Part shown: one piece after another, positions 10,985 through 64,000 of the stretch
How positions within the stretch are numbered: the stretch's first letter is position 1
Layout of the letters: each line of letters starts with the position of its first letter
From: a virus
Taxonomy: Duplodnaviria; Caudoviricetes
Direction: 5' to 3' (one strand)
Length of the DNA stretch: 64,000 nucleotides
Virus record (IMG/VR): IMGVR_UViG_3300028886_000042
Notes under the pieces: model-generated
What the model saw: the letters and a program-made list of their open reading frames with translations, nothing else
What the model was told of the DNA's origin: nothing
The model's database searches: none
Program-made: the position numbers and the translations under genes

Positions 10985-10996
10985 TTTTTTCTTATA

Positions 10997-11026: not shown

Positions 11027-11067
11027 GTCTGAATGAGCCGTTAACGGGCAGTCATTGGTTTGGTGGC

Positions 11068-11934: not shown

Positions 11935-12238
11935 ATACAGTACAGTTTATCGTTCATAATTATCCAAACCACGTGCAAATATACTACTTTTTCATGTAAC
12001 AAATAAACTTCTAAAGTTATTTATTGTTAAATAACTGAATATTACAGTAAAGAAGAACATACTACAAGCAATTGAATGTCTTAAAAATGCTGTTGCTACC
12101 GATGCTCAACTCTACTAAAGAGCCATTAGCGAGCCATTAACAGAAAGTTCAACATACTGAAAATAAATCTGTTGACAATGTTAAACAGAATTATCATGAG
12201 CCTTTAACAATTAAAGGTTCATTTTTTTTTAGTATTTT

Positions 12239-12269
12239 TTTGGAATTTATTAATAAAATAGTATATTTG
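12239..12269 (+). promoter_or_regulatory. Bacteroidota-type promoter
   Basis: TTTG-N19-TATATTTG. Confidence 0.7.
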
Positions 12270-12289
12270 CAATATATTCTAAATTTTTA

Positions 12290-12718: not shown

Positions 12719-12765
12719 TATATTTATACGGATATAGTCATATTTATTAAAAAAGATTTTTTTCA

Positions 12766-13959: not shown

Positions 13960-14015
13960 CATAATCCTATACTATTTATTGTAAATCTGCAACATATTTG
14001 CAGATAAAAAATAGT

Positions 14016-15221
14016 ATGTTTAAAGAAGATTATATTAAACGAGCACGGGAGATACATGGTGATAACTATGATTACAGTCAATTACCCGAAGAATTTAAAG
14101 GAACTGATAAAATCACAATTATTTGCAAAGAACACGGCCCGTTTGTTCAAATTGCAAGAAACCATATAAGTGTACAGCATTCAGGTTGTCCCATTTGCGG
14201 AAGAAAACGTGCAAATAGTAAATTAACAGATACTTTCGAAGAATTTGTTAAAAAGGCAAGAAAAGTACATGGTGAAAACTTTGAATATATTGAAAGTAGT
14301 TTCAAAAAAACCGGTTCTAAATTAAAGATAAAATGTAACAAATGTGGGAAAATATTCGAACAAACAGGTTCTATGCATTTATCCGGCAATGGGTGCTCAC
14401 ATTGCAATCCACCACATAAAAAGCGAACGACAGAAGATTTCGCTGCTGAACTTGCTATAACTCATCCAAATCTGGAACTGCTAAGTGAATATGTTAATAC
14501 AAATACACCTATTACTGTTAGATGTAAAATACATGACTATACTTATCAAACAACACCCCATCGTTTAAAACAGGGGGCAAATTGTCAAAAATGTTATGAT
14601 GATAGAAGAAGTGTAACTAATAGAAAACCTATTGAAAAAATACTTGAAGAAGTAGAAAAAATTCATGGGGATAAATATATTTTACCTTATATCAATACAG
14701 AGTACATAAACTCTAAGACAAAATTAACATGTAAATGCAAACACGGACATGAATTTAAAATTACTCTAAATAAACTGATAAACAGAGAACAGGGTTGTCC
14801 TATCTGTAATGAAAGTCATCTTGAGGAGAAAATCTCACTTTTAATCCCATCATTTGAGCGAAATAAGCATTATGACTGGCTTAAAAATCCAAAAACTAAT
14901 TGTATGTTAACATTAGATTCCTATGATGAAAAACTTAATGTAGCAATAGAATGTCAGGGAGACCAACATTTCAAACCGTATGAAATATGGGGTGGGGAAG
15001 TTTCATTTAAAAAGAACATTGAGCGTGACATTATTAAAAATAGGTTATGCAAAGAACATGGTACAAAATTAATTTATGTAATCCCTAAATCATACAAAAA
15101 TAAATTAAATGAAGAGAAATATAAGGGAATATATACTGACGATAATGTATTCTTTATTGAAGATATAGAAAAAGATTGCACAGATTTCATTAATATGATA
15201 TATGATTCTCAAAAAAAGTAA
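14016..15221 (+). CDS. Free-standing homing endonuclease-like protein (Zn-binding repeats plus Vsr-like/PD-(D/E)XK domain)
   Basis: Repeated HG..YDY..I.C..HG.F......H....GCP.C units; C-terminal LD.Y...NVAIECQGDQH; ATG at 14016. Confidence 0.72.
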   Translation: MFKEDYIKRAREIHGDNYDYSQLPEEFKGTDKITIICKEHGPFVQIARNHISVQHSGCPICGRKRANSKLTDTFEEFVKKARKVHGENFEYIESSFKKTGSKLKIKCNKCGKIFEQTGSMHLSGNGCSHCNPPHKKRTTEDFAAELAITHPNLELLSEYVNTNTPITVRCKIHDYTYQTTPHRLKQGANCQKCYDDRRSVTNRKPIEKILEEVEKIHGDKYILPYINTEYINSKTKLTCKCKHGHEFKITLNKLINREQGCPICNESHLEEKISLLIPSFERNKHYDWLKNPKTNCMLTLDSYDEKLNVAIECQGDQHFKPYEIWGGEVSFKKNIERDIIKNRLCKEHGTKLIYVIPKSYKNKLNEEKYKGIYTDDNVFFIEDIEKDCTDFINMIYDSQKK

Positions 15222-17862: not shown

Positions 17863-19767
17863 ATGCGTGAATTACTTACAAGCGGTGCAGTAGGCTCAAT
17901 TGAACTTAATGCACAGAAGAAAATCAGACAGGATATCCAGGAAAGATGGCAGAAACTGGGACTTGTAAACGGTCTTGAAGGTCATATTATGGAAACTGTT
18001 GCAACACTTTATGAGAATCAGGCTAAGCACCTTATATATGAGGCTACAGCATCAGATAACTCCGGTTCATTCGAAACTGTTGTGTTCCCACTGATTCGCC
18101 GTGTATTCAGCAAGCTCCTTGCAAACGATATCGTTTCAGTACAGGCTATGAACCTTCCTATCGGTAAGCTGTTCTTCATCAAGCCCGTAACTTCTGAGCG
18201 TGACTGGAACTTTGCTTCCGATACACAGATTACAGACGGTGATACAGGTCGCCACCTAGGTCTTATGGGTTATAAGAGAACACAGAAGAACCGCCTCTAT
18301 GACGCTGACGGTAATCCTGAACCTTTCGATGCAAACGACGAGAGAACATGGAACTCAAAGAACCGTTACTATCTTCCTGACGAGGTTGTACAGCCTACAC
18401 AGACTGATGCTGATACCACAACTCCAGAAGTAACGAAGTACATGAAGAAGACTCTCTATGACCTCTTCTACAATGACTTCCTCTTCGATAATTCAAAGGG
18501 TAAGGTTACTATCAAGGTAGGCAGTGCTTCAGTTGTTACTATCCTTCCTAACGGTGACTATGAGGACGTTGACCCCGCTGACATTCCGGTTAGCCCACTT
18601 GACGGTTCTATCAGCTCACTTATGCTGAAGGTTGGCGGCTTTAGCCAGTTCAATGCAGGTCATCTGATTGGCCCTGACGGTAATGAAATGGACACTGAAT
18701 CATTCCTTGCTTCTCTGAAGGTTATCACTACAAAGGACTTCACTGATGACAGTGAGGACGGTAAGTATACCACATTCAAGAAGGGTGAATCAATCCAGTT
18801 CCGTGTTGTTACACAGAAGTATGCAACAGGTCTCGTAGACTATGCTCCTACATGTGACCCACAAGGACATATCTATATCGAACTCGACCTTACAAAGCCT
18901 TGCAAGAATCAGGGTACTACAATCAACGGTTATATCGGTCTGAACCCCGATACTACTATTGACCCTGCTACTGACTTCCAGGTTGCTTGGGCTGAGTATG
19001 ACTCTCTCGAACTCGAAACCGAGATGGGTGAGGTATCATTCCAGCTGACTTCAGTTACAGTTTCCGTTGAGGAAAGAAAACTCCGTGCAACATGGTCTCC
19101 TGAGTTGGCACAAGACGTGTCCGCATTCCATAACATTGACGCAGAGGCTGAGCTGACTGCTATCCTCTCTGAGCAGATTGCTGCTGAGATTGACCGTGAA
19201 ATTCTCCGTGATATCCGTAAGTCTGCTCCTTGGAAGGCTCGTTGGGACTACAACGGATGGCAGAGAATCGGTACTCCTTCAACTGTTTATACACAGAAGG
19301 ACTGGAATCAGACTCTTATGACTAAGATTAACATGATTTCAGCACAGATTCAGAAGTCAACACTCCGTGGCGGTGCAAGCTTCATTGTTGTATCTGCTGA
19401 GATTTCAGCTGTATTGAACGACCTTGAATACTTCCATGTAACAGATGCAAGTGCCGAGAGCGAACAGTACAACATGGGTATCGAGAAAATCGGTTCTTTG
19501 CAGGGACGTTATCAGGTTATTGTTGACCCATATGCACCTCACTGGTCATTGATTATGGGACACCACGGTACATCTTTGCTTGATACAGGTTATATCTATG
19601 CACCATATATTCCCATGGCTTTGACACCTGTAATGTACAACCCGTTCAACTTTGCGCCCGTAAAGGGGATATCCACAAGATATGCTAAGAAGTTAGTAAA
19701 CAACCGTTACTACGGTGCAATTCAATGCGACGGCTTGACCCATTGGTCGACAGACGAGTTGCGTTAA
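17863..19767 (+). CDS. gp23: Major capsid protein (T4 gp23-like)
   Basis: LIRRVFSKLLANDIVSVQAM, RKLRATWSPELAQD...DAEAELTAILSEQIAAEIDREI, YAPYIP, TRYA. Confidence 0.96.
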   Translation: MRELLTSGAVGSIELNAQKKIRQDIQERWQKLGLVNGLEGHIMETVATLYENQAKHLIYEATASDNSGSFETVVFPLIRRVFSKLLANDIVSVQAMNLPIGKLFFIKPVTSERDWNFASDTQITDGDTGRHLGLMGYKRTQKNRLYDADGNPEPFDANDERTWNSKNRYYLPDEVVQPTQTDADTTTPEVTKYMKKTLYDLFYNDFLFDNSKGKVTIKVGSASVVTILPNGDYEDVDPADIPVSPLDGSISSLMLKVGGFSQFNAGHLIGPDGNEMDTESFLASLKVITTKDFTDDSEDGKYTTFKKGESIQFRVVTQKYATGLVDYAPTCDPQGHIYIELDLTKPCKNQGTTINGYIGLNPDTTIDPATDFQVAWAEYDSLELETEMGEVSFQLTSVTVSVEERKLRATWSPELAQDVSAFHNIDAEAELTAILSEQIAAEIDREILRDIRKSAPWKARWDYNGWQRIGTPSTVYTQKDWNQTLMTKINMISAQIQKSTLRGGASFIVVSAEISAVLNDLEYFHVTDASAESEQYNMGIEKIGSLQGRYQVIVDPYAPHWSLIMGHHGTSLLDTGYIYAPYIPMALTPVMYNPFNFAPVKGISTRYAKKLVNNRYYGAIQCDGLTHWSTDELR

Positions 19768-20020: not shown

Positions 20021-21694
20021 ATGAGAAAAAAGGTAATTTTAGATGAAAGTACAATTTGTAGTGAATATTTGAATGAAAGGGTTGGTGTTGAGACGTTAGC
20101 CTTGAAATATCATACCGGTAAAAAAAAGATTAAGGAAATATTAGGTAAGAATGGAATAGGGATAAAGAAAAGGGGCAAACAGCCTCTTACGGGTAATTTT
20201 GTATTATCTGATTGGAAGATTGAGAAATATCCGAAAGTAGAAGGTAAGTTTTATGTTGCTGTTGATAGGAATGATGGTTTTACAACAACTGACTACAAGA
20301 ATAAGGCAGGTGTATTAACATCACATATTAAGGAGAAATATAGTATAGACATACCGACACTTTATGACAGACGTGTGTATTACATGAGAACCGGAAACTA
20401 TTGGTGGGAACAGTGGTTTGACATAATTCTAAAAGATAAAGTACAAACAAAAAAATGTCCTTATTGTAATTGGGAAACAAAGGATATTAATAATCTAAGT
20501 GGGGTATTTGAGGTACATCTTAACAAAAAGCACTGTATGACAAAGTTTGAATACCTTGAAGAACATCCTGAAGACAGGGATTATTTTGCATTGGTTTCCC
20601 CTATTTTAAACAGACAGATGGAAACAAACCCTGATAATTATGTTATTTGTAAAATTTGTGGTAAGAAAGTCAGTCATATAGGTGGAAATCATATAAAATC
20701 ACATAATATGACATTAGAAAACTATGTAAGTATTTATGGTGATAAGGATATTGTTTGTAAGAATTTCCACGATAGCATGTCTAAATTTGCAATTAAAGCA
20801 AATACTGAAATGACACCTGTTAAGAGTTCAAAAGATGAATTGGAAATAAAGAGATTTATAGAAAAACATGGTGTATTATGTAAGCCTGACAGGTCTATTT
20901 TAAATGGTAGGGAAATTGATATATTCATACCATCCATGAATATTGGTATTGAATATAACGGTAATAAGTGGCACACAGAATTTTTCGGTAAGAAAAACAG
21001 GTATTACCACATATCAAAAAAGAATGACTGCTTAAAGAAGGGTGTGAGGTTAATTCAGATATTTGAAGATGAGTATACTTTACATAAGGATATTGTTATG
21101 AGTAAGCTTTCGCATATTCTTGGGTTTGATGGTAATAAGCCTAAAATATATGGCCGTAAATGTGAAATTAGGACTGTGTTAAAAAGTGAGGCTGATATAT
21201 TCTTAGAGAAATATCATATACAAGGTACTACACATTTTACTGTATCATTGGGGGCTTATTATAATGCCATGCTAATTGGTGTGATGTGTTTTTGTGTATT
21301 ACCTGATAATAATTGGGAGCTTGTAAGGTTTGCCTCGGATTATCATTTCAGGTGTAGTGGAGTTGGCGGTAAGCTCTTTAAGTATTTTGTAAGCAATTAT
21401 GAATTTAATGAAATAAAGTCATTTGCTGACAGAAGGTGGACAATTAATGAAGAGGATAATTTATACACTAAACTTGGGTTTATAAATGATGGTGTAACCA
21501 AACCATCCTTTACCTATTATTTTCCTAAATTATATGGCTGTGAGAGAAAACACAAATTAACGTTAAAGAAGACAAAAATGCTTAAGGAGCATCCTGAGTT
21601 TGAAGGTATGACAGAAAAGGAAATGACTCAAGAATTAGGTTATGACCGTATTTGGGATTGTGGGTTAATCAGATATATTTATAGGAATTCATGA
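20021..21694 (+). CDS. Hef-like endonuclease (Zn fingers, Vsr-like nuclease, GNAT-like C-domain)
   Basis: EIDIFIPSMNIGIEYNGNKWH, IFEDE, ELVRFAS, SFADRRW, IWDCG. Confidence 0.7.
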   Translation: MRKKVILDESTICSEYLNERVGVETLALKYHTGKKKIKEILGKNGIGIKKRGKQPLTGNFVLSDWKIEKYPKVEGKFYVAVDRNDGFTTTDYKNKAGVLTSHIKEKYSIDIPTLYDRRVYYMRTGNYWWEQWFDIILKDKVQTKKCPYCNWETKDINNLSGVFEVHLNKKHCMTKFEYLEEHPEDRDYFALVSPILNRQMETNPDNYVICKICGKKVSHIGGNHIKSHNMTLENYVSIYGDKDIVCKNFHDSMSKFAIKANTEMTPVKSSKDELEIKRFIEKHGVLCKPDRSILNGREIDIFIPSMNIGIEYNGNKWHTEFFGKKNRYYHISKKNDCLKKGVRLIQIFEDEYTLHKDIVMSKLSHILGFDGNKPKIYGRKCEIRTVLKSEADIFLEKYHIQGTTHFTVSLGAYYNAMLIGVMCFCVLPDNNWELVRFASDYHFRCSGVGGKLFKYFVSNYEFNEIKSFADRRWTINEEDNLYTKLGFINDGVTKPSFTYYFPKLYGCERKHKLTLKKTKMLKEHPEFEGMTEKEMTQELGYDRIWDCGLIRYIYRNS

Positions 21695-53134: not shown

Positions 53135-54901
53135 ATGGCTAATAAAACATTACAATTTTTAAGAAACTCAACTATTTTTACTTCACGTACTGCTGCGTTG
53201 ACAGGTTTGGAGAATCAGTTGAAGGCTGCAACCGCAAAGGATGGTGAACCTATTCTTGCTATTTATACCGACGGCAAAGGTGGAACAGAGCATACTTTGC
53301 TTGGTATTAAAGGTAAGACAAGTTATGAAATCTTCGATAATGAAGGTTCTGCTGCTAAGGCTGTGACCAGCGTACAGTATGATGGTGATAATAATAAGAT
53401 TACCTATACAAAGGATGGAACTGCAACTGATGTTGTAACAACAGCCGCACTGTTGACCGATATGGATTTGAATGTTACTAATATCGGTGAAACGGGTAAG
53501 GTAATTACTGTTGTTGGTGAAACAAATGGTAAAGTAACTGCAACAGCAACTAATTTTACAGATGTAATTCTTGGTGGTTATTCCAAAACAGCAGATACCG
53601 GTGCAATTGATGCAACTGATACTCTTGAAAAGGCTTTGAGCAAGTTGGAGAACACTGTTGCAACAAACGCTATTGTTTCTGACGATAGTTCTATCACAGT
53701 TGCTCCTTCTCAAAATAAAGGTACAAGTGTTGTAGTTAATGTTGACGGTACTACAATCGTTAAGGCTAATGGTGGTGCTTTGAAGGCTGATTTGAAGATT
53801 TTGAAGGAAACAACCGGTTTAGCAACTAATGTAAAGGAACAGTATAAACTGGTTTATGGCAATAGTACTACCGCTATTGGTGATATAGTTACGATTTACA
53901 AGGACAGTGCACTCGTTAATATTGAATTAGGTCATGTTGATGATACACTTAAAAGCGAAGACCCTACAACACATGAATCTGCTTCAAGTACCATTGTTTC
54001 AGGTAGTGGTGATACTGCTCTCGTATATGTAATGCAGTTGGCTAATGGTAATTATAAGTTGGCTGCTGTAAATGTTCAGTCTTTCTTAGAGGAGACTGAA
54101 TTTAGTGACGGTTTACAAGTAAATAATCACGTTGTTTCTGTTAAGCTTGATGCAAGTGGTGATGATACAGGTGCCGGTAAATTCTTGACTGTTGGAAGTG
54201 ACGGTTTGAAACTTGATGGTGTATCTGATGCTATCAATACTGCTAAGAGTGAAGTAATTGGTGAAAGTACTGATGTTTCAACTGATAACACTATTTATGG
54301 TGCTAAGGCTTATGCTGACGCTGCTATTGCTGATTTGGATGCAACTGTTAGTCAGACTGCCGGTGCTGATGGTTTGGCATTGTCAGTAACTGAGGCAGAT
54401 GGTGTTATAACTGGTATCAGTGGTTCTATTGCCGCTAATATTTATGATGCCTACGGTGCTGCTTCCACTGCTAAGAGTGAAGTAATTGGTACAAGTGGTG
54501 ATGCTTCCACTGCTAATACCATCTACGGTGCTAAGGCTTATGCTGATGCTGCTGTTGTTGCTTTGGATGCTGAAAAAACTTCCACAGACGGTACTAATGT
54601 ACAAGTTAAGGTAACTGAGGTTGATGGTAAAATTACTGCTGTAAATATTACTACTGACAACACAGTTAACAGTACCAATGTAAATACTGCTATCACTACT
54701 GCTATTGAAGCTTTGGATGCTACTGATACTGCTGTTACTAACCAATTCGTAACTGCTGTTAGTGAAGCAAACGGTGTGATTTCTGTAACACGCGCTCAAC
54801 CCGCTGCTGGTGATGTAAGTTTTAGTAATACACATTTTGATGCTACTACTGTTGATGCTGCTCTTGCTGAACTTGCAGTATTTGACGCAGGTGTATATTG
54901 A
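53135..54901 (+). CDS. Fibre protein
   Basis: Ala/Thr-rich; duplicated TAKSEVIG...NTIYGAKAYADAA. Confidence 0.7.
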   Translation: MANKTLQFLRNSTIFTSRTAALTGLENQLKAATAKDGEPILAIYTDGKGGTEHTLLGIKGKTSYEIFDNEGSAAKAVTSVQYDGDNNKITYTKDGTATDVVTTAALLTDMDLNVTNIGETGKVITVVGETNGKVTATATNFTDVILGGYSKTADTGAIDATDTLEKALSKLENTVATNAIVSDDSSITVAPSQNKGTSVVVNVDGTTIVKANGGALKADLKILKETTGLATNVKEQYKLVYGNSTTAIGDIVTIYKDSALVNIELGHVDDTLKSEDPTTHESASSTIVSGSGDTALVYVMQLANGNYKLAAVNVQSFLEETEFSDGLQVNNHVVSVKLDASGDDTGAGKFLTVGSDGLKLDGVSDAINTAKSEVIGESTDVSTDNTIYGAKAYADAAIADLDATVSQTAGADGLALSVTEADGVITGISGSIAANIYDAYGAASTAKSEVIGTSGDASTANTIYGAKAYADAAVVALDAEKTSTDGTNVQVKVTEVDGKITAVNITTDNTVNSTNVNTAITTAIEALDATDTAVTNQFVTAVSEANGVISVTRAQPAAGDVSFSNTHFDATTVDAALAELAVFDAGVY

Positions 54902-54923
54902 TGAAACAAAAACTCTATATAAA

Positions 54924-54951
54924 TTAAGTCTCTGTTATTGCAGAGACTTAA
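54924..54951. terminator. Hairpin at a convergent junction
   Basis: TTAAGTCTCTG/CAGAGACTTAA. Confidence 0.55.
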
Positions 54952-56317
54952 TTTTTTTTAACAGTTTATTTTTTGAAGAAAATAGGTTGTCATGATACAT
55001 TTCCTTTAATTTTTCATTAGTATCAATGTATTTTTTTATATCTTTCACATCAGAATAATATAATAAAGTTAAACCCCTTTCTTTTGATTCTTTGTATTTT
55101 ATATAATCTTTATTAATTCTTTCATCAAAATTTTCTTTAAATTTTTTGCACTCTTTAAAGTGTTGTAGCCCTTGACATTCAATTAATATATTTAGTTTTG
55201 GTATATAAAAATCAAATGGCATATGATGTTTATATTTTATTCCTTCAATTACAGCTTGTCTTGTAAATTCAATATTATTTTCCTTTAAAAGTATATTTAT
55301 TTCACGTTCACCATGACTTTCATTACAATATGGGCAACCCTGACCCTGTAAATGACTGTTTGCTAATTGTTTAAATTCTCCATGTTTAGGGCATATTATT
55401 ATAACACTTCCATTATTGCGTGTATAAATAGTTTTAGAATAGTCATATTTATTATCATGTATTTTTGAAGCACGTTCTATAAATTCTTCTGTTGTTAAAG
55501 GTTTATTTCTAGCACAAGAAGGACAGCCAATACCACGTAAATGGTGTACCGGATTTTGTAAAAAAGAACCATGTTCCGGACATATTATTTCCACATTTTC
55601 ATCACTATTTTTACCAATTTTTGTTTTGGTATAATCATATTTACCATTATGAACTTTTGTTGCGCGTTTTATAAATTCTTCTGTTGTTAAAGGTTTATTT
55701 TTAGCACAAGAAGGACAGCCATGCCCACGCAAAATATTATTTGGTGTTGCATAAAATGAACCATGTTCCGGACATATAACTTCAACCTTTTGCACACAGC
55801 CAGTATAAATGGATTTTGAAAAATCATATTTGTCACCCCATTTATCTTTAGCTTTTTTTATGAAGTCCTCAGTCTTTAATTTTATTTTCTCTTCATCGGT
55901 TATTTTTCCATATTCACGTCCCCGTTTACCAGTAAACGGCATACCGTCAGGTGAATCAATATGTATAAATGGTTTTTGCCAAAAAATACCTTCGGGATTA
56001 TCATCTGTAATAAGTTCTTTGCATTTTATACAAACCTTTGTTCTTCTACCTTTAAAAACAACTTCTGAATAATCAAATTTATCACCGTGTTTTTCCTTTG
56101 CTGCTTTAATAAAATCTTCAGTTGACCAATTTCTTCTTCCTACACATCTAGGACAACCGTCACCTCTAAGATGTACTGAAATTTGTTGTTTAAATTCACC
56201 ATGTTTAGGACAAATAATACTTACTTTGTTAGCACAACTCGTTTCTTCAAAATAAGGGTATTCATATTTATCACCATGTTTTTCCCTTGCACGTTTTACA
56301 AAATCTTCATGTTTCAT
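54935..56317 (-). CDS. Homing endonuclease-like protein (Zn-binding repeats plus Vsr-like domain)
   Basis: About five H..K(Y/F)DY..IICP.HG.F.Q....HL.G.GCP.C repeats; FDFYIPKLNILIECQGLQH. Confidence 0.72.
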   Translation of the reverse strand: MKHEDFVKRAREKHGDKYEYPYFEETSCANKVSIICPKHGEFKQQISVHLRGDGCPRCVGRRNWSTEDFIKAAKEKHGDKFDYSEVVFKGRRTKVCIKCKELITDDNPEGIFWQKPFIHIDSPDGMPFTGKRGREYGKITDEEKIKLKTEDFIKKAKDKWGDKYDFSKSIYTGCVQKVEVICPEHGSFYATPNNILRGHGCPSCAKNKPLTTEEFIKRATKVHNGKYDYTKTKIGKNSDENVEIICPEHGSFLQNPVHHLRGIGCPSCARNKPLTTEEFIERASKIHDNKYDYSKTIYTRNNGSVIIICPKHGEFKQLANSHLQGQGCPYCNESHGEREINILLKENNIEFTRQAVIEGIKYKHHMPFDFYIPKLNILIECQGLQHFKECKKFKENFDERINKDYIKYKESKERGLTLLYYSDVKDIKKYIDTNEKLKEMYHDNLFSSKNKLLKKIKSLQ

Positions 56318-56430
56318 TTTCTTTTGATTTCATATATTTATTTATATATAAATATCATTAGAAAATAAAAAATGACTGTGGTATGTATTATTTTTTTAAT
56401 GAAAATCAATAAGTTATACACTTAAATAAT

Positions 56431-56470
56431 TAATTCCTGAGTAATTAGAAAATAACTACTCAGGAATTTT
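56431..56470 (-). terminator. Terminator after the polymerase C-part
   Basis: AATTCCTGAGTA/TACTCAGGAATT stem. Confidence 0.65.
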
Positions 56471-56471
56471 T

Positions 56472-58064
56472 TTATCCTTCCTCTGCTGTTTCTTCTTCTT
56501 TTGTTACAAATTCGTGGTCTATAATATCGAATATATTACCCAGTACTATATTATATTTTCTTGAAATGAAATTATTAGAGTTAACATCTTCGTCAACGAT
56601 TGCGAGTATTCTGTCAGGTATAACACCTTCCTCAATAAATTCATCTACTTCATCTCTTGTAAGTGAGTCGATTGCATTATTATACAGTGACAGTTCCAGT
56701 TGTATTTCTTCCTTTTCAAGTTGTTTCATACGTTCCTTATAGTCAGCAACTATTTCATCCCAATTCATACCTATTTCATTTATGTATGGAGGTGTTTTAT
56801 TAACTGATAACCAGAATTTTATTTCCTTATCCTCCATTGTCATAAGCTGTTCATATGTATCTTGGTCTGTAGGGTTATACGGCTCTCCTGATACAAGTTC
56901 GCATTCATTATCAGTAAACTGTTTTCTGTCCTTCGGATTGTTTATAAGGATATTAGACACCTCTTTTCCCTTTTCGTTTATCCTTGTCCTTATATCCCTT
57001 GAAAAGCATACAAGAAGCGGTTTAATCTTCTTATTGAACATTTCCACGTACTTTTCAACATTATATTCAAAGGTATCGTCACAGAAATGGTCATCATCAT
57101 CCTCTACAATATCATTTGACAGTAATATACAGTTGAAAATAAGTGTATCTTTGTCATGGAATGAACTACCGTAGTGTGATTTACCGAAATCATATTTACT
57201 AATCCATTTTCCGTCCTTTTTCTTCATTTCATCAGGACGTTCCTTTTTGGCTTTTGTATAGAGTTTTTCCAACTCCTTTGTTACTTTAACCTCTTCACCC
57301 GACTTATCCGTTATATAGTAGTCAGTTACACGCTTAACGTCTGAATCCCCCTTCTTTTTACCTGTGTTTATATAATATATACTGTCACCCATATTGACAT
57401 TAAGGCCGTGCTTTATGGCAAGTTCATACCAAGCCTGTCTTGCCTTCTTTGAACCGGCTGCTGTAAGTTCATTACAACTGTTTTTGTATGTATCTATTGA
57501 GGTTTTAATCTTGCCTACGGTTGCTATTTCCTTTAATGGTATCTGAAGGTTGTATATCTTTTCAATATAGTCATAGTAGGCTTCAAGGAATTCCTTACCC
57601 TTTCCTTCAAGCAGAAGTACACATTTTTCATTTAGGAATTTCTCAATGTATAACGGTATTTTTTTTGATTTAATGGAATTACCTACAAATTTAAGACTAC
57701 CGTCAGGAAAAAGGTCAAGATAGTTCTTACGTGACAAGTTTAATGAAGAATCTATATACTCATCTATATCCAACCCCATGTGATTAGAGCCTCCTTCGTA
57801 TTCGACACCAAGATATAAATCCTCGAATTCTGCTACATCGGCTTCTGTTTTTGTATATTTTTTACCTTCTACTGTATGTTCACCCTTTCCGTTACTGATG
57901 TAAGGATGTTCATCTGTATATCTGTATTTATCAGGTAATTCGAAGTTAAACCCATCTGTATTGCTAATAACATTTAATCCGTTGGCATTGATAATAGTAG
58001 AGTCAAGTGAAATATCATAGACATAATCACTGTAATCTTTTTCTAATAATTTGGATTCCATCAT
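56472..58064 (-). CDS. polB: DNA polymerase B, C-terminal part fused to split intein C-fragment
   Basis: 35-aa IntC ending VYDISL...VISN, then TDGF (second half of motif C), RKNY, and thumb region GDSIYYI. Confidence 0.88.
   Translation of the reverse strand: MMESKLLEKDYSDYVYDISLDSTIINANGLNVISNTDGFNFELPDKYRYTDEHPYISNGKGEHTVEGKKYTKTEADVAEFEDLYLGVEYEGGSNHMGLDIDEYIDSSLNLSRKNYLDLFPDGSLKFVGNSIKSKKIPLYIEKFLNEKCVLLLEGKGKEFLEAYYDYIEKIYNLQIPLKEIATVGKIKTSIDTYKNSCNELTAAGSKKARQAWYELAIKHGLNVNMGDSIYYINTGKKKGDSDVKRVTDYYITDKSGEEVKVTKELEKLYTKAKKERPDEMKKKDGKWISKYDFGKSHYGSSFHDKDTLIFNCILLSNDIVEDDDDHFCDDTFEYNVEKYVEMFNKKIKPLLVCFSRDIRTRINEKGKEVSNILINNPKDRKQFTDNECELVSGEPYNPTDQDTYEQLMTMEDKEIKFWLSVNKTPPYINEIGMNWDEIVADYKERMKQLEKEEIQLELSLYNNAIDSLTRDEVDEFIEEGVIPDRILAIVDEDVNSNNFISRKYNIVLGNIFDIIDHEFVTKEEETAEEG
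57960..58064 (-). mobile_element. Split intein C-fragment (35 aa)
   Basis: Block F YVYDISL; terminal Asn; Thr+1. Confidence 0.85.
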
Positions 58065-58077
58065 TTATATTTTTTGG

Positions 58078-58109
58078 CAAACTTATTACTTTTATTTCAC
58101 TTTACCAAA
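58078..58109 (-). promoter_or_regulatory. Bacteroidota-type promoter for the polymerase C-part
   Basis: Reverse complement reads TTTG-N20-TAAGTTTG, 14 nt upstream of the ATG. Confidence 0.6.
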
Positions 58110-58118
58110 TTATAATTG

Positions 58119-60002
58119 TTAATTTTTATTAAACCATTTGTAAACTGCCGTACCACAATCATAAATTCTATACCATTTTTGTAATTTACAAAATTCACTT
58201 TCACTCATATCTTCCGGACATCCATATTTTTTTACAAGTATACTTTTGCGGTAGTTGAATCTGTTTTTCCTCATATCACCAATGACATAGAAATAATTTG
58301 GTGGTGAAAAATGTGAAAATTCAAAACCTAAATTATCATACAGATTACCTTTAGACCATCTTCTATCAGCATATGAAACAACACTATTTGGTTTGTATTT
58401 ATCAACAAAATATTTGAATAGTTTAGAAGCACCTCCTATGACAGTTGTATTCAATATATTACAGAACCTTAACAATTCATACTCCATTTTACCGTTGCCG
58501 ATAAAATGCCTTGATTTACCGAATGTCATTAATGATACTAATTCTTCATTATAGTACAGGCCTAACTTTATCTGACTTGGACACCATCCTTGTATATGGT
58601 TATTTTCCAAAAAAACAGTACATTCCTTTGTTGATACTTCTTTTATTATACATTTTCTGGCATATATTCTTTTTTCGGTTTTACCGAGAATGTTGGAAAT
58701 TATGGATTTCCATATATTCTTTTTGTATATCCATTCATCCTCAAATACATGAATTAATCTAACACCACTTTTCTCGCATTCAGTCGTTTTCCATAGATGA
58801 TAATCCTTTTCCCTATTATTTTCATTATGCCAGAATACACCGTCAAATTCAAAGGCAATCTTTAAAGAAGGTATGTAAATATCAAGTTCTTTTCCTTCAA
58901 GTATTTTTCTGTCGTTATTATAAGCATCCTCAAAACCAAGTGTTCTTATAAAATTACATATTTCCTTTTCTTTTAAAGAAGAATTACAGTTGTGATAAGG
59001 ACAACCATGCCCCCTCAAAAATGAATTAGCCTCAATAGTAAACGTTCTTCCACATTCATTACATCTGACTTCAATTTTTTTATTTGAAGATACATATTCA
59101 CTTAGTATAGTGTATTTACCTTCTCCATATACTGAATCGATTTCCTTTTTAAATTCTTCTGTTGTTTTTGTTTTTTCTTTAGATATTATCCTTTTATTAC
59201 ATTCAGGACACGGGTCGCCATTTAAAAAACCGTTGAAAAATCTGTTGTAAGGTCTTTTGAACTCATATCCGCAATTTTTACATTTACAAGACATGGTTTT
59301 CATTGTGCCGTCATATAGGGAATAGTCAACTGTTATTGACGGATATACTTCTTCCATCCTTTTCTTAACATCATCTACTTGTAAACGACGTTTCTTTCCT
59401 GCTTTTCTGTTTGCACATATTTTACATGAACATTTCCCATTTAATATACGACTGATTTTCTTGTATTCTTTATTTCCACATTCTTTACATATTGTCAATA
59501 CTTTGTCATCTTTTATGTTTTTTTTACCTTCGAAGTATTCGATATAAAAACCATTTATTTTCTCCGATAATTCATTATATGTTATTGTTTCTTTAGGTGT
59601 TTCCTTGCACCAGCAGCCACCTGTTTTTGAAGTAATAAAATCACAGGCAATCTTTGTAAAAACATTACCACATAAATTGCACCTAACAGTTATCTTACTG
59701 TGACTGTTTTCATATTCTGTTTCAATATAAGGAAATGTGTATCTATCACCGAATCTTTCTTTAGCCTTTTCTGTAAAATGTTCCCAATTATTTTTAGAAT
59801 ACATCGCTGCATATTTTTTACCACATACAGGACATCCTTGACCGTTTAAATGGTTTTTAGGGGTTTGTTGAAACCTGTAGCCACATTTATTATGTGTCAT
59901 GAACATCTTTTTCTTAGTATTTACATAAGAATCCGGTTCATATGTGTATTCATTACCATGAACTTCAATTGCCTTATTCTTAAACCATTCGTAATTATGC
60001 AT
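58119..60002 (-). CDS. Hef-like free-standing endonuclease between the polymerase halves
   Basis: Multiple CxxC repeats; ELDIYIPSLKIAFEFDGVFWH; ELLRFC; SYADRRW; IYDCG. Confidence 0.75.
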   Translation of the reverse strand: MHNYEWFKNKAIEVHGNEYTYEPDSYVNTKKKMFMTHNKCGYRFQQTPKNHLNGQGCPVCGKKYAAMYSKNNWEHFTEKAKERFGDRYTFPYIETEYENSHSKITVRCNLCGNVFTKIACDFITSKTGGCWCKETPKETITYNELSEKINGFYIEYFEGKKNIKDDKVLTICKECGNKEYKKISRILNGKCSCKICANRKAGKKRRLQVDDVKKRMEEVYPSITVDYSLYDGTMKTMSCKCKNCGYEFKRPYNRFFNGFLNGDPCPECNKRIISKEKTKTTEEFKKEIDSVYGEGKYTILSEYVSSNKKIEVRCNECGRTFTIEANSFLRGHGCPYHNCNSSLKEKEICNFIRTLGFEDAYNNDRKILEGKELDIYIPSLKIAFEFDGVFWHNENNREKDYHLWKTTECEKSGVRLIHVFEDEWIYKKNIWKSIISNILGKTEKRIYARKCIIKEVSTKECTVFLENNHIQGWCPSQIKLGLYYNEELVSLMTFGKSRHFIGNGKMEYELLRFCNILNTTVIGGASKLFKYFVDKYKPNSVVSYADRRWSKGNLYDNLGFEFSHFSPPNYFYVIGDMRKNRFNYRKSILVKKYGCPEDMSESEFCKLQKWYRIYDCGTAVYKWFNKN

Positions 60003-60058
60003 ATTTAATTTGTGTTATATAAATAAATATATACCATTACCAATTTATTCATCAATAG

Positions 60059-60634
60059 TTAGTCTTTTTTTATAAAAAAGGGTATCTTTTCATGTATTGT
60101 ATACTTGATATTAACGCATTTCTTAATAAACTCTATTCTTGCTATGTCAGTTTTTGTTTTCATGTTCCATCCTTTACTTAGGTTATCTATGAAATTTTTC
60201 TTGTTTTCGATATTTGCATTCAGAAGCCAAAGCCATGTGTCCTTAATATTGTCATTTTCAGTCAATGTATTAAAGGAAGAATATATATCACCTTCATAAT
60301 ACTCTAACTTTGTATCTGAATTAATTTCAGACGGTTTTATCTTTTCCTTATCAGAATTAAACAGACTGTGGTCTTCGGTTACATCTACAAACATGTTATT
60401 TTCCTTATCACTGACTCTGTATATGGGCTTTGTTGTCTTATGCCGGTAAATATACTGAGGCTCAACCCATCCGCTTCTGCAAAGTACCTTGAATTTCTTC
60501 TTTGAATAGTCATATTCACGTCCTAATGCGTCAATCTGTATGTCTTTTTCACTTATTAACTCTGAAATAGGCTTTATGTCAATTAATCCGCTGTCCTCAT
60601 ATCTGATAAATAAAGGCGTGTCAGAAGTAAATGA
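60059..60634 (-). mobile_element. Split intein N-fragment (191 aa)
   Basis: Block A SFTSDTPLFIR; block B VDVTEDHSLF; no terminal Asn block. Confidence 0.85.
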
Positions 60635-62605
60635 GTCACCTACAACAGGTGTATAGTTGTAATCTGAACCTAAACCGTTTGTAGTTCCTAATTCAGTGAA
60701 GAATTTTATCATCAGACGGAGTGCCTGCCTACCGATACATGTTGTATTTTCAGCAGCATCAATATCTGAGAACGGAAATATTTCACCACTACCGTAACTT
60801 CCGAAAAATCCGTTGCAAATAACCTTTGTACAACCTTGTATATTATCAAAGAAAACATATTCAGCAATTGCAGTTTCCTTTTCAGCTAAAAGATTATCCG
60901 TATTTTCATTTAAACTCTTTTTTTCTTCTATTTCCTTTGTTAGTTTTTCTTTTCTGATTTCAGCTTCTTTTTTCTTGGATTTATAATATTGACGCTGTTT
61001 TAAAAGATATTCAAGCAGATATAACATTATATCCATCAAATCTACCGGTGTTTTTATACCAAAGGTTAAAATACAACTGGGATAAAGTGAAGAGAAATCA
61101 CCTTTGAACTGTTTCTTTATCTTACCCGTTTTTAAAAGTCTGCTGATTCCACCACAGAATTTCCTTCGTTGTATCAGTTCCGGTATTGCCAAATCATGCT
61201 GATAACTCCAAGCAAGCATGATATATTTCCAAACGGCAGCAGTTCCCATTGTACATACCTTATCGTATGATACGGGTAGTAATTTACATACAAAATAATT
61301 CGTAACGTTATATTTGTATTCTACCTTATCACTCTCCCAAAGGTCATCAAGAAGGTATCTTTGGACGATATATCTGCCGGTAGTATATTCATATATACTG
61401 TTATCTGAATTGTCCTTTAGAAAATGCTTGTCATTTTCATAATAGTCAGTATATTTAAGTGAACCGTCCTCTAATGTTTTGGACAGTTTTTTATTGTCAA
61501 CCTTAAACCATTCTCCGTTCAGATTATTGAATGCATATGTTTCAGTCAAATCCTCCCAAACGGTATTGATTTTCTTACCCGGTACATATACACGGTTTTC
61601 CTTGTTGATTTTGGAGTATTTTGTGATGTATTTAAGGTTCGCGGACTTTATATTACTGTTAATGGCCATCGCACGTCTTACTGCAAATAGTGAATCCGTA
61701 AGATGCGTACCCCACATAACGGTAGGATAGAAATACTCCATTTCACCTCCAAGTTTCAGAACCTGTTGTTTTTTCTTCTTGAATACACCTTTTCTGAAGT
61801 ATTCCATTGAGAACTCACCCATATTGAGGCCCATAAGTCTAAGTCTTGTTTCAATGAAATTCCAGTCAAAGTTTTCGGTATTATGTCCTGTGATTACATC
61901 AGACTGTAATTCCTTTATTGTTTCGAAAAATTCACGTATTGCATTGAACTCGTTCTTCCGTTTTTCCTCACCTTCACCGTCAACCGTTATGATTTTCTCA
62001 AAACCCTTGTTGGTTCTTATACCTATCTGACTGATTGCGTCCTTCTCAGGGTCAAGTCCTTCGGTTTCCAAGTCCCATTCCATTCTGAGCAGGTCATCGT
62101 AGTCATCATACCCCTTGAAAAGCCTCCTGCCTGTCTGAATCATGTACTGTTCAACAGGAGAAATACATATGTATTCCTTTAATCCGTAATTACTGTCACG
62201 TTCTTTAGGATATATAGGTCTACCGGCTTTTTTGAAGAAATCCATGAACTTTGAATATGTCATGGGAACCTTTGCATAGAACAGCAGTTTATATCCGTTC
62301 TTCATACGTTCAGGTTCAGTACCATCATCACGTGTAGTCCTTAACCCCTTTACGCCTATATTGTATTCTGACAGTTTAATCCTTATCAGTTTTCTGTCAC
62401 CTCCGAAAAGTTTTTGGGCTGTTGTCTCCTTTGTCCACAGAAACGGATAGAAATTCTCCCTTTTAATCATTTTCCTACCCTCTTCGTTCCTGTATATGAT
62501 ACTTACCTTGTTGTCATCATATCCGCATTCTATCTTAATGATATGCTCCATAGGGTCAGTACCGTTAAGGAATGACTCGATTTCTTCCTTTGTTACCTTT
62601 GGCAT
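60059..62605 (-). CDS. polB: DNA polymerase B, N-terminal part fused to split intein N-fragment
   Basis: ExoI DLETEG, ExoII HNTENFD, motif A DFSSLYPS, motif B KVICNGFFG; motif C breaks after VVGD. Confidence 0.9.
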   Translation of the reverse strand: MPKVTKEEIESFLNGTDPMEHIIKIECGYDDNKVSIIYRNEEGRKMIKRENFYPFLWTKETTAQKLFGGDRKLIRIKLSEYNIGVKGLRTTRDDGTEPERMKNGYKLLFYAKVPMTYSKFMDFFKKAGRPIYPKERDSNYGLKEYICISPVEQYMIQTGRRLFKGYDDYDDLLRMEWDLETEGLDPEKDAISQIGIRTNKGFEKIITVDGEGEEKRKNEFNAIREFFETIKELQSDVITGHNTENFDWNFIETRLRLMGLNMGEFSMEYFRKGVFKKKKQQVLKLGGEMEYFYPTVMWGTHLTDSLFAVRRAMAINSNIKSANLKYITKYSKINKENRVYVPGKKINTVWEDLTETYAFNNLNGEWFKVDNKKLSKTLEDGSLKYTDYYENDKHFLKDNSDNSIYEYTTGRYIVQRYLLDDLWESDKVEYKYNVTNYFVCKLLPVSYDKVCTMGTAAVWKYIMLAWSYQHDLAIPELIQRRKFCGGISRLLKTGKIKKQFKGDFSSLYPSCILTFGIKTPVDLMDIMLYLLEYLLKQRQYYKSKKKEAEIRKEKLTKEIEEKKSLNENTDNLLAEKETAIAEYVFFDNIQGCTKVICNGFFGSYGSGEIFPFSDIDAAENTTCIGRQALRLMIKFFTELGTTNGLGSDYNYTPVVGDSFTSDTPLFIRYEDSGLIDIKPISELISEKDIQIDALGREYDYSKKKFKVLCRSGWVEPQYIYRHKTTKPIYRVSDKENNMFVDVTEDHSLFNSDKEKIKPSEINSDTKLEYYEGDIYSSFNTLTENDNIKDTWLWLLNANIENKKNFIDNLSKGWNMKTKTDIARIEFIKKCVNIKYTIHEKIPFFIKKD

Positions 62606-62690
62606 CTTTTTTCAGTAAAAATAAATTAATATTATATAAAATCCACTTAAAGCCGACATCTTAAAACGGGCATCATGGATATACTTTCTG

Positions 62691-62721
62691 CAAATATACT
62701 GTAAATAACGTTAAAAACAAA
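62691..62721 (-). promoter_or_regulatory. Bacteroidota-type promoter for the polymerase N-part
   Basis: Reverse complement reads TTTG-N19-TATATTTG. Confidence 0.7.
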
Positions 62722-62796
62722 AATATAACTGTTTTAACAAATGTTAAAATATTTTTGTCTGAAACCGTATATTTATTGTATATATAAGTTTTTAGA

Positions 62797-63201
62797 ATGA
62801 TGAAACAGAGGTATAAATTAACGGAAAGCGAACTTCATAACCTTATAGCAGAATCAGTAAAGGAAGTATTGGCTGAGAGTGCTGAAATGGATGAAGGTTG
62901 GCTTGGAGATAAGTGGAATCAGGCAAAAAGTGCTGCGAGAACAGCTTTCAATGCTGAAGGCGGTGTCGGTAACAGATTATCACAGGCAAAGAAAAACTGG
63001 AATACACAGGGTGACTTGAATAATCTTACTTCCCTTCGCACTCAACTTGAACAGTTGCTTGATGCCAGACAGATTAGCCCCGATACTACGGTAGGTCAGC
63101 TTGTAGGCGGCAAATACAACAACAACCGATTCGGTACTATGTCAGGTATGGTAGCAAACCGTAGAGGACAGATTCAGCGTCGCGGCGGTGTTGCTTATTA
63201 A
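62797..63201 (+). CDS. Leader-tagged hypothetical protein
   Basis: MMKQRYKLTESELHNLIAESVKEVLAES; TATTTAT at 62770. Confidence 0.7.
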   Translation: MMKQRYKLTESELHNLIAESVKEVLAESAEMDEGWLGDKWNQAKSAARTAFNAEGGVGNRLSQAKKNWNTQGDLNNLTSLRTQLEQLLDARQISPDTTVGQLVGGKYNNNRFGTMSGMVANRRGQIQRRGGVAY

Positions 63202-63221
63202 TAGCTTTTTTGCTATAAAAA

Positions 63222-63253
63222 AACAGCAGACTTGATATACAGGTCTGCTTTTT
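63222..63253. terminator. Bidirectional terminator
   Basis: AGCAGACTTG/CAGGTCTGCT stem. Confidence 0.7.
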
Positions 63254-63263
63254 ATATTTATTT

Positions 63264-63725
63264 TCACCGGTTGAATATCCATGAAACTATTTTCAGAAAT
63301 AAGCCGTCTTTCGGCTTGTCTACAATCATTTCGAGGTTATTATATACCTTTATATTCATACCATAGGTTTTGTTGAGGCGTTTCATGTGTTTTCTGAAAT
63401 GTCTGCCATGCCCTAAAAATCCGTCGAAATGTATTCCTTCAACGGTTGTAACATACATATGTATCATTTCATGAACCATAACATCCCTCAGTGTTTCATC
63501 CGTCCATCTTACATTTCTCGAAATACCGATACGACTTTCCGACTTACCGTTTTTCTTTTCCTCGAAATCATATTTTCCATATGTATCTCCTGCAATTAAC
63601 CAGTAGAATTTGCATTTTCCCAACTCACCGTTGAAATACATCTTGTTGTATCTGTCAAACAGTTCATAAAGTATTTCCCTGTCAGTTTCCTTGCCGTTAA
63701 GGAGTAATTTGTACTTATTTGCCAT
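63264..63725 (-). CDS. SprT-like zinc metalloprotease
   Basis: YN..YF.G.L, HEMIH, HGRHF; ATG 63725 lies downstream of TAACTTTG (63747-63754). Confidence 0.8.
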   Translation of the reverse strand: MANKYKLLLNGKETDREILYELFDRYNKMYFNGELGKCKFYWLIAGDTYGKYDFEEKKNGKSESRIGISRNVRWTDETLRDVMVHEMIHMYVTTVEGIHFDGFLGHGRHFRKHMKRLNKTYGMNIKVYNNLEMIVDKPKDGLFLKIVSWIFNR

Positions 63726-63797
63726 AAATTTTTCAGAAATATGTGACAAAGTTAATACATTTGTCTATAATATTGAAATTATTTCAGTTAAAAAATG

Positions 63798-64000
63798 TTA
63801 ATCATGTACTAAGATGCAGTTGTATTTTTCGGTTAATTCTAAAATCCTGTCAATGTAATCTTCTGAGTATTGTGTTGTATATAACCCTTCATTTAAATGG
63901 AGCTGCTTTGTGACTAATTTCTTTATATTTTCTAAACGTCGTTGATAATCTTTTAATGTGTAATTAGTCACTTTAACAATGGCATTCCATCCTTTTTTTG
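63798..64000 (-). CDS. 3' end of a gene entering from beyond the window
   Basis: Open frame ...GWNAIVKVTNY...NCILVHD*. Confidence 0.55.
   Translation of the reverse strand, partial: KKGWNAIVKVTNYTLKDYQRRLENIKKLVTKQLHLNEGLYTTQYSEDYIDRILELTEKYNCILVHD

Follow-up and report, generated by a model that had tools for sequence, protein, structure and literature searches.

We analyzed the family B DNA polymerase (polB) locus of an uncultured tailed phage of roughly 209 kb, contained in a 64,000-nucleotide stretch of DNA (the window). Three genes occur there on the minus strand, as do all features described below, just where the original prediction had placed them: an N-gene (60059..62605), a free-standing endonuclease gene (58119..60002) and a C-gene (56472..58064). 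Several TAA stops lie between the endonuclease gene and each of its neighbors, so the three genes do not form one read-through ORF.

The N-gene encodes 848 aa, namely polymerase residues 1-657 followed by a 191-aa N-intein (IntN). The polymerase part, or N-extein (60635..62605), comprises the exonuclease domain, motif A (DFSSLYPS), the motif B region and half of motif C (..VVGD). It matches Pfam DNA_pol_B_exo1 (E 5.6e-11) and the DNA polymerase family phrog_262 (E 3e-51), and shares 43-68% identity with the N parts at 31 related loci. Its last residues, YTPVVGD (651-657), are followed directly by SFTSDTPLFI, which is intein block A beginning with Ser1 (codon 60632..60634), and further on by VTEDH of block B. 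IntN consists of a splicing core (IntN 1-118; 60281..60634), whose catalytic residues do not vary in alignments A1 and A4, and a tail (IntN 119-191; 60062..60280). The core includes the NX motif Arg64-His65 (His codon 60440..60442) and Thr86-Glu-Asp-His89 of block B.

The C-gene encodes 530 aa and opens with a 35-aa C-intein (IntC; 57960..58064), in which we found YVYDISL, containing block F (VYDIS), and NGLNVISN (block G) with the terminal Asn35 (codon 57960..57962). The intein blocks at the end of one gene and the short F/G fragment at the start of the other are thus both present as predicted. The remainder, or C-extein (residues 36-530; 56472..57959), begins at Thr+1 with TDGF, the second half of motif C, and continues through the palm and thumb; its identity to the C parts in related polB genes ranges from 38% to 74%. 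Joining the exteins gives 657+495 = 1152 aa with motif C whole again. Immediately past the C-gene stop, a terminator-like hairpin with a 16-bp stem (56432..56468) was detected, and none was found between the three genes, in a consensus scan whose site count was not above that of shuffled sequences. A second free-standing endonuclease paralogue of 460 aa (54935..56317) lies directly downstream of polB. It matches phrog_559 (E 2e-71) and, above their cut-offs, Pfam DUF4379 and DUF723.

Alleles of the motif C site in related phages

Next, we compared the locus with its relatives, of which 15 are intein-less, two carry a one-piece LAGLIDADG intein at this site (L002 and L010) and 13 are split. In all 15 intein-less loci the sequence P[IV]V[GM]D/TDG[FIV]N (the slash marks the junction) is unbroken and in frame, in ORFs of about 1060-1150 codons. 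The predicted splice site coincides exactly with this GD/TDG join, inside motif C. The comparison with continuous polB genes thus supports the predicted join at VGD/TDG.

Because the contig is of metagenomic origin, we considered whether the split gene might be decaying into a pseudogene, or result from faulty assembly, in a phage that uses another polymerase. However, the split layout recurs with both ORFs intact in 13 of 31 related viral contigs from different samples, which argues against chance or misassembly, and two contigs from several sources encode identical proteins. The dN/dS of the exteins is 0.04-0.18. In addition, in two relatives rated complete by CheckV (351 and 388 kb) the only PolB match is the split polB itself, and neither a further PolB nor a PolA was found in them, although the phage of the window itself, covered here in part, may conceivably encode a second polymerase. 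We therefore regard this explanation as very improbable.

The one-piece intein of L002 (355 aa) is of the LAGLIDADG type and occupies the same site. It matches Pfam LAGLIDADG_3 above the cut-off (36 bits) and PI-PkoII (2cw7; E 0.003), and its match to Pfam Intein_splicing (E 1.1e-5, 25.7 bits) falls below the 35.8-bit cut-off. The tails of the split N-inteins align by hhalign with the endonuclease domain of the L002 and L010 inteins (probability 94.7%, E 5.7e-8), although Pfam LAGLIDADG models gave no match to the window's own tail. A MAFFT alignment with the one-piece inteins showed that the catalytic acidic residue is gone, and the tail has low conservation and a higher dN/dS. Judging from these alignments, the tail derives from the second half of a LAGLIDADG endonuclease domain and has since degenerated.

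Joining of the halves at the RNA level, by an endonuclease-bearing group I intron or by trans-splicing, would make the intein motifs coincidental. Vsr-like endonucleases do also inhabit group I introns (PMC2677866, PMC3239194), and in Aeromonas phage Aes508 the polB gene is annotated as holding such an intron at another position. Yet a search of 54000..64000 against Rfam gave no match, to group I introns or to any other family, at E up to 1, and the sequences that flank the endonuclease gene are protein-coding, conserved as protein and homologous to one-piece inteins. Such RNA-level joining seems extremely unlikely.

Splicing residues and predicted fold of the intein

Among nine split alleles, whose exteins are 45-70% identical, Ser1, Arg-His of the NX motif, TEDHS, VYDIS, the terminal Asn and TDGF are all invariant, as are Asp5, Thr6 and Pro7 of block A. 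In IntC (alignment A2) the invariant residues are V15, Y16, D17, I18, S19, D21, N26, A27, G29, N31 and N35, and Thr+1 (T36 of the C-gene) is invariant alongside D17 and N35. The NX motif of IntN reads Y-I-Y-R64-H65. Its His is invariant in 13 sequences and is preceded by Arg or Lys in 14, and block B keeps its Thr, Asp, His and Ser in all of 13 sequences, among them Aes508, Tenacibaculum phage PTm1 and Salicola SCTP-2. Identity between alleles is 59-78% for the splicing core and 47-70% for the exteins, so that conservation of the core equals or exceeds that of the polymerase.

The penultimate residue of block G is not the usual His: it is Ser in eight of the nine split alleles and Cys in one. 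Elsewhere it is His (the L002 one-piece intein, Aes508 and PTm1), Lys (SCTP-2) or Ala (L010). The penultimate His aids Asn cyclisation in many inteins, and it is common, but not universal, among active ones. Two non-catalytic cysteines occur in IntN, one of them the invariant Cys of VLCRSGW, and none occurs in IntC. From its residues, then, the intein appears to be cysteine-independent in its chemistry, though it is not cysteine-free. Ser1 with Ser or Thr at +1 has been reported as the signature of cysteine-independent PolB inteins, a group that includes Aes123 PolB1, CP21 PolB1, LCGC14 PolB2, PolB16 OarG and Neq Pol (PMC10189870, PMC12707363), and the NX motif, a His after Arg or Lys upstream of block B, typifies Ser1 inteins (PMC10189870). 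The combination of Ser1, penultimate Ser and Thr+1 had been called atypical; this applies to the penultimate Ser, whereas Ser1 with Thr or Ser at +1 is usual for the group.

We also searched for similarity to known inteins. Pfam intein families did not match the window's own fragments, and phmmer with IntN alone retrieved no solved intein. A profile of the split N-inteins (A1, built without the Aes sequence) did match the solved Aes123 PolB1 split intein (9hth; E 8.5e-4), its best solved-structure match. IntN modelled alone, from a nine-row alignment, reached a pLDDT of 69. Its leading Foldseek matches were inteins (Mja TFIIB, E 2e-3, probability 1.00; PolB16, Aes123 and NeqN), and NeqN was the best match in VIA (Z 5.7, rmsd 4.0 over 83 residues). 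In both fold searches the best scores were modest. The predicted IntN+IntC complex scored 0.89, as against 0.17 for the best of three controls; this passes a mark that 58 of 80 solved complexes attained, as did 2 of 110 mismatched pairs. Contact agreement between runs was at least 87% and partner pLDDT at least 74. Since split-intein complexes have already been solved, the pass may mirror likeness to known structures rather than provide independent evidence. Within these limits, the structure predictions support a Hint fold.

Taken together, comparative, profile, fold and complex-prediction evidence supports the original prediction that polB is broken in motif C by a naturally split intein with an endonuclease gene between its halves. 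Given that the split lies inside motif C, the enzyme probably needs protein trans-splicing.

It could also be speculated that the halves splice no more and serve as a non-covalent dimerisation clamp for two polymerase chains. The loss of the penultimate His (SN) and the extra fossil domain on IntN would fit this, and NrdA of phage Aeh1 is a fragmented enzyme assembled through interaction domains derived from mobile elements (PMC3045599). However, a clamp needs none of the residues of the splicing chemistry (Ser1, the NX His, the block B Thr and His, the block F Asp, the terminal Asn and Thr+1), which are all invariant, and the break lies between the two catalytic aspartates of motif C, the position that could least accommodate a free chain end. 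Moreover, one-piece relatives without the penultimate His persist (SCTP-2, KN; L010, AQ), and these must splice because the polymerase could not work otherwise. The clamp therefore seems unlikely. Functional trans-splicing of the two halves, as suggested by their residues, the models and the analogy with known systems, appears highly probable.

Relation to known split polymerases and fractured genes

The split polB arrangement, with the break in this motif, is found in the GenBank annotation of Aes508 and PTm1, and it has been described in Pseudomonas phage MIJ3 (PMC6892783), among others. For the split intein of Aes123 PolB1, trans-splicing was demonstrated in vitro (PMC11923092). The locus is thus a further example of a class that has known and experimentally studied members in other phages.

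Aes123/Aes508 PolB1, from T4-like phages of Aeromonas salmonicida (JN377894; 9hth; PMC11923092), is also a phage polB broken in motif C, and in Aes508 the gene order is as here, with an N-intein gene, a gene with a VSR-endonuclease domain and a C-intein gene on one strand. It shares Ser1, the NX motif (Lys-His there) and T-x-D-H-S of block B. However, the insertion site of Aes508 and PTm1 is DTD/S, and GD/TDG lies two residues upstream of it; this is why the Aes +1 residue is Ser and not Thr. Furthermore, Aes block G ends in HN instead of SN, its IntN has 120 aa without an endonuclease remnant as against 191 aa here, its endonuclease shows no significant similarity to ours in pairwise BLAST, and the Aes gene is broken a second time, by a GIY-YIG gene.

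The polB genes of the jumbo phages Pseudomonas MIJ3/PA5oct and Salicola SCTP-2 also carry a Ser1 intein (PMC6892783). The SCTP-2 mini-intein occupies the identical site (GD/S...KN/TDS), has YRH and TEDHS and likewise lacks the penultimate His, and BLASTP across the junction gives 34% identity to the window (E 1e-8), but it is in one piece with no endonuclease. In MIJ3, as at our locus, an endonuclease gene separates the halves; this endonuclease is described as HNH, and block G of the MIJ3 intein as ending in HN followed by S (PMC6892783). The LAGLIDADG remnant of our N-intein is present in neither.

More generally, the locus has the layout that defines fractured genes (gp41-1, NrdJ-1, IMPDH-1 and others), mainly of phages, in the cited account of Dassa et al. 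2009 (PMC2677866): split-intein halves on two adjacent genes with a free-standing, often Vsr-like, endonuclease between them. Their gene-breaking model, as outlined there, predicts the stages found among the relatives here. In the same parts of that report, the inteins have Cys1 and N-parts of 88-105 aa, unlike Ser1 and 191 aa here, family B polymerase is not among the host genes named, and the set holds few complete loci and no single-lineage series of empty, one-piece and split alleles. Neq Pol of Nanoarchaeum equitans (5oxz), whose NeqN was the best VIA match, resembles our intein as a naturally split, cysteine-independent intein of a family B polymerase, but comes from a thermophilic archaeon, where its halves are encoded far apart and without an intervening endonuclease gene (PMC2677866, PMC10189870).

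As for the suggestion that this may be a new orthogonal split-intein pair, the polB arrangement is already known, and orthogonality to known pairs is plausible at about 25% identity between our intein and the Aes intein. New here are the GD/TDG site two residues upstream of that of PolB1, the penultimate Ser and the half LAGLIDADG fossil in the N-intein.

The endonuclease and the proposed breaking of the gene

The 627-aa endonuclease has treble-clef zinc-finger repeats, a nuclease core at about residues 340-430 and a GNAT-like C-terminal domain, and matches phrog_559 (E 1e-152) and the 'homing endonuclease' family phrog_3339 (E 3e-116). Its profile (A3) matches the catalytic domain of I-Bth0305I (3r3p) over about 90 residues (E 7e-6, 28 bits), and its match to Pfam Vsr (E 0.004, 17.4 bits) is below the 27-bit cut-off. 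These matches assign it to the Vsr-like/EDxHD family, represented by I-Bth0305I (PMC3239194), with a PD-(D/E)xK nuclease core and predicted homing activity. I-Bth0305I is intron-encoded, whereas the enzyme here is free-standing, and only the latter has the roughly 330 aa of zinc-finger repeats upstream and the GNAT-like domain downstream. The dN/dS against the homologue in L001 is about 0.09. We also found a replaced cassette whose borders coincide exactly with IntN and the 3' end of the endonuclease gene, an indirect hint that the enzyme may cleave alleles without the element in a site-specific way.

Based on these results, we propose that a class 1 cysteine-independent intein (Ser1 ... Ser-Asn/Thr+1), located between the two catalytic aspartates of motif C, was interrupted by a free-standing Vsr-like/EDxHD homing endonuclease gene at the position where endonucleases are usually inserted. 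The two products, of 848 aa and 530 aa, would pair via the 191-aa N-intein and the 35-aa C-intein into a Hint fold and splice in trans through oxyester intermediates: the NX His and the block B Thr and His would assist Ser1, Thr+1 would attack and the terminal Asn would cyclise, leaving a 1152-aa polymerase with motif C intact. The endonuclease may be a selfish passenger that spreads the IntN-endonuclease cassette among related phages, and the IntN tail would be the fossil of the LAGLIDADG endonuclease borne by the ancestral one-piece intein.

N-parts of natural split inteins range from 88 to 120 aa in the cited parts of PMC2677866 and PMC11923092. The 73-aa tail is thus unusual and could hinder assembly. 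In the complex model, its invariant Lys818 and Ala822 contact Ala27 and Asn28 of IntC, beside the invariant Asn26-Ala27. We tentatively raise the possibility, suggested by this model, of a mesophilic cysteine-independent split intein with an unusual residue set (Ser1, NX His, Ser-Asn and Thr+1) and a LAGLIDADG fossil helix in its IntC interface. If this speculation is true, the pair would be structurally distinct and probably orthogonal to known ones. If the gene-breaking reading is true, this phage lineage would keep every stage of the process, namely empty, one-piece, split with endonuclease and split after endonuclease loss, and also a further stage in which the halves have been pushed 4.6-5.6 kb apart.

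Structure of the polymerase locus and its relatives

The three open reading frames of the locus all lie on the minus strand, exactly where the original prediction had placed them. The N-gene (60059..62605; 848 aa) encodes the N-terminal part of a family B DNA polymerase, and its product matches Pfam DNA_pol_B_exo1 (E = 5.6e-11) and phrog_262 (E = 3e-51). This polymerase part ends with ..YTPVVGD (residue 657) and is followed by SFTSDTPLFI, with VTEDH occurring 85 residues further on. The C-gene (56472..58064; 530 aa) opens with an intein part of 35 residues, which contains VYDIS and NGLNVISN, and continues with TDGF. Between the halves lies a 627-aa endonuclease gene (58119..60002) with TAA stops on either side. 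The anatomy and the intein-like motifs at the break proved to be as described. The window is tailed-phage DNA that carries genes for the portal protein and the major head protein, on a contig of about 209 kb.

Since the endonuclease gene is in frame with the C-gene, a single read-through or recoded open reading frame was considered; this was ruled out because at least five in-frame TAA stops separate the two genes. An Rfam scan of 54000..64000 detected no intron and gave two chance-level matches only. A hairpin with a 16-bp stem and a T-rich tract was found directly 3' of the polB C-gene stop (56432-56468, minus strand), and no comparable site occurs between the three genes. This is consistent with a single transcript of the N-half, the endonuclease and the C-half. 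However, a promoter and terminator scan gave no more sites than were found in shuffled sequences, and co-transcription of the three genes is therefore a conjecture.

When viral contigs were scanned with the N-gene product, 31 related loci were identified, many of them on contigs of 100-390 kb, and we sorted these loci into allele states by tblastn and ORF tracing. In 15 of these loci polB carries no intein and runs uninterrupted through the predicted junction, reading ..P[IV]V[GM]D/TDG[FIV]N.. exactly at this point (here and below, the slash marks the splice site). Thus, the 1152-aa product predicted from joining the two halves (657+495 residues) corresponds to real contiguous enzymes. A split intein is present in 13 loci and a one-piece intein at the predicted junction in two (L002, 355 aa; L010, 349 aa), and one locus is truncated by the contig end. 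The L002 intein begins with Ser, ends with HN/T, and matches Pfam LAGLIDADG_3 (36.1 bits; cut-off, 22.5), Intein_splicing (E = 1.1e-5) and, by phmmer, PI-PkoII (2cw7; E = 0.003); it is a classical LAGLIDADG intein. In L010 (9834-10880), the one-piece intein of this site is also of the LAGLIDADG type; it ends with Ala-Gln, not His-Asn, and may be Gln-cyclising or decaying. A mini-intein of 163 aa occupies the same position in the cultured Salicola phage SCTP-2 (GD/SVTHDT...YRH...TEDHS...VYDV...KN/TDS). The lineage is without a close deposited relative: neither Megablast of the locus nor tblastn with the full C-gene product or its residues 1-120 gave a match in the phage database, and the best match of the N-extein there shows 22% identity, in Salinibacter phages.

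Conservation and predicted fold of the split intein

Among nine aligned split alleles, whose exteins share only 45-70% identity, Ser1, the Asp, Thr and Pro of block A, the Arg-His pair at positions 64-65 and TEDHS of block B are invariant in the N-intein (IntN), as are VYDIS with the block F Asp, the terminal Asn and TDGF at the C-intein (IntC) side. It has been reported that the Arg-His pair (NX motif) is specific to, and required by, Ser1 inteins (PMC10189870). The splicing core (IntN 1-118) shows 59-78% identity between alleles, which is at least equal to the conservation of the exteins, and the IntN tail only 18-54%. Given that dS is saturated for most allele pairs, dN/dS is informative only for close pairs. 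The split intein of the window is very probably functional in trans-splicing, and the junction peptide of the spliced product would read ..TPVVGDTDGFNFELPDK... The reading of polB as a gene broken by a split intein with an endonuclease gene in between is supported.

Pfam detected no intein family on the window's own fragments, and phmmer of IntN against the PDB gave chance matches only. A profile of the split N-inteins alone (alignment A1) found 9hth, the solved Aes123 PolB1 split intein, as its sole significant PDB match (E = 8.5e-4). A second alignment (A4) also matched 9hth (E = 1e-25), but this result is circular because A4 includes the Aes508 sequence; it was not used, and A1 was taken in its place.

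Structure prediction pointed in the same direction. The AlphaFold model of IntN alone has a pLDDT of 69, and its best Foldseek matches are inteins, namely the Mja TFIIB mini-intein (2e-3), PolB16 OarG, Aes123 PolB1 and NeqN; VIA-align of the model with NeqN gave a Z of 5.7 and an rmsd of 4.0 over 83 residues. These fold-search scores are modest. The predicted IntN+IntC complex scored 0.89 as against 0.17 for the best of three controls, a value that indicates likeness and is no proof of binding, because solved structures include many split-intein complexes. Of 80 solved complexes, 58 reach the mark used for this score, as do 2 of 110 mismatched pairs. Contact agreement between runs was at least 87%, and the partner pLDDT at least 74.

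With its 191 aa, IntN far exceeds the known natural N-fragments, which have 88-120 aa (PMC2677866; PMC11923092). In an hhalign comparison, the tails matched the endonuclease domain found in both one-piece inteins (probability, 94.7%; E = 5.7e-8). Alignment places the tail on the second LAGLIDADG half, through an ..ILN..K..K.F[IL]D.. stretch and a ..K..[IV]A.....[FL].. helix; the first half has been lost, as has the catalytic acidic residue. In the complex model, tail residues 166-174 (chain as submitted) contact C-intein residues 27-28, and the contacting residues include an invariant Lys and Ala. The model suggests that a fossil LAGLIDADG helix may have been retained because it forms part of the interface.

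Two relatives are rated as complete (351 and 388 kb); in both, the sole PolB-exonuclease match is the split polB, and no PolA was found. If these genomes are used as a proxy for the window's own, it is reasonable to infer that replication requires trans-splicing.

The endonuclease and movement of the element

The 627-aa endonuclease matches PHROG 559 (E = 1e-152) and 3339 (E = 3e-116), and comparison with the L001 homologue gave a dN/dS of about 0.09. A profile built from eight homologues matched the catalytic domain of I-Bth0305I (3r3p; E = 7e-6), which represents a Vsr-like family described as first predicted in fractured genes (PMC2677866; PMC3239194). Pairwise BLAST showed no significant similarity to the VSR-domain genes of Aes508 and PTm1, so that the tie to this family comes from the profile search only. 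Treble-clef zinc-finger repeats (Pfam DUF4379/DUF723) make up the N-terminal half, and the last 170 residues resemble GNAT acetyltransferases (profile match to glyphosate N-acetyltransferase 2bsw, E = 0.002); this domain, at residues of about 450-565, has a weak Pfam Mom match, is conserved in the homologues, and is an unusual domain to find next to a homing nuclease. Two paralogues occur directly downstream of the polB C-gene (54935..56317, minus strand) and directly after the major head protein gene at 17863-19767 (20021..21694, plus strand), bringing this homing endonuclease family to three copies in 64 kb.

Comparison of L001 and L003 DNA showed 89-98% identity across both extein regions and IntC. 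Identity drops to 40-72% from the first IntN codons to the last endonuclease codons and then recovers. Since this drop is confined to IntN and the endonuclease gene, these two are the exchanged unit, and the moving piece does not include IntC. The polB gene is itself an island of 89-98% identity, with unalignable flanks on both sides. The L002 exteins are almost the same as those of L001 and L003 (tree branch lengths of 0.01 or less), and L002 carries the one-piece LAGLIDADG intein instead. These three loci (about 8000-14100 each) therefore have near-identical exteins and three different elements at one site; two of these are diverged IntN-endonuclease cassettes, and the third is an intact one-piece LAGLIDADG intein.

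Split, one-piece and empty states are interleaved in the N-extein tree, and its well-supported branches force at least five changes of split state. Several split alleles represent later stages. In L022, on a contig rated by CheckV as a complete 351-kb phage genome, the endonuclease gene has been lost (10517-10682); the halves are 164 nt apart, and of the endonuclease only a 38-aa C-terminal remnant is left. The L004 halves are 5.6 kb apart, and the gap holds two or three endonuclease genes and an IS605 OrfB/TnpB-like gene (13205-14515, minus strand; Pfam OrfB_IS605, E = 5e-17; Cas12f1-like TNB, E = 3e-9). In L012 (10511-15140), and also in L013-L015, the halves are 4.6 kb apart, and the gap contains four opposite-strand ORFs (627, 392, 287 and 116 aa) that showed no Pfam match and no similarity to the endonuclease.

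Relation to known split inteins

The layout is that of the 'fractured gene' of Dassa et al. (2009), and for polB it is already known in several phages. GenBank annotation of Aeromonas phage Aes508/Aes123 polB gives an N-intein, a VSR-domain gene and a C-intein, as in the window, and Tenacibaculum phage PTm1 polB is annotated likewise; the Aes123 PolB1 intein occurs split in nature and has been characterised (PMC11923092). Pseudomonas phage MIJ3 has a split polB intein with an HNH gene between the halves (PMC6892783), and further polB cases are CP21 PolB1, LCGC14 PolB2 and GOM-OPS-1 PolB2 (PMC12707363) and PolB16 OarG from a sheep gut metagenome (PMC10189870). The window's locus is a new, diverged member of this known, experimentally validated class. 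The Aes and PTm1 inteins lie at DTD/S, two residues downstream of the window's site, and both end with HN/S. In contrast, the window's intein shares its site with SCTP-2 and has Thr+1, a penultimate Ser and a LAGLIDADG remnant, and its endonuclease differs in the zinc-finger/GNAT architecture.

Split inteins that occur naturally and dispense with cysteine are rare, and there is demand for them in protein ligation under oxidising conditions. Almost all of the few that have been characterised come from phage or archaeal polB (PMC10189870, PMC12707363). The present finding is of value for the new candidate cysteine-independent split inteins that it provides, and as a clean series from nature of how inteins and genes become split. 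The family adds about ten diverged natural pairs, and their Thr+1, lack of a penultimate His and long N-fragment make them reasonable candidates for orthogonal tools. With regard to evolution, the related contigs illustrate the gene-breaking model of 2009 in a natural series of unusual completeness. For phage biology, the locus is another case in which the sole replicative polymerase detected seems to rely on protein splicing.
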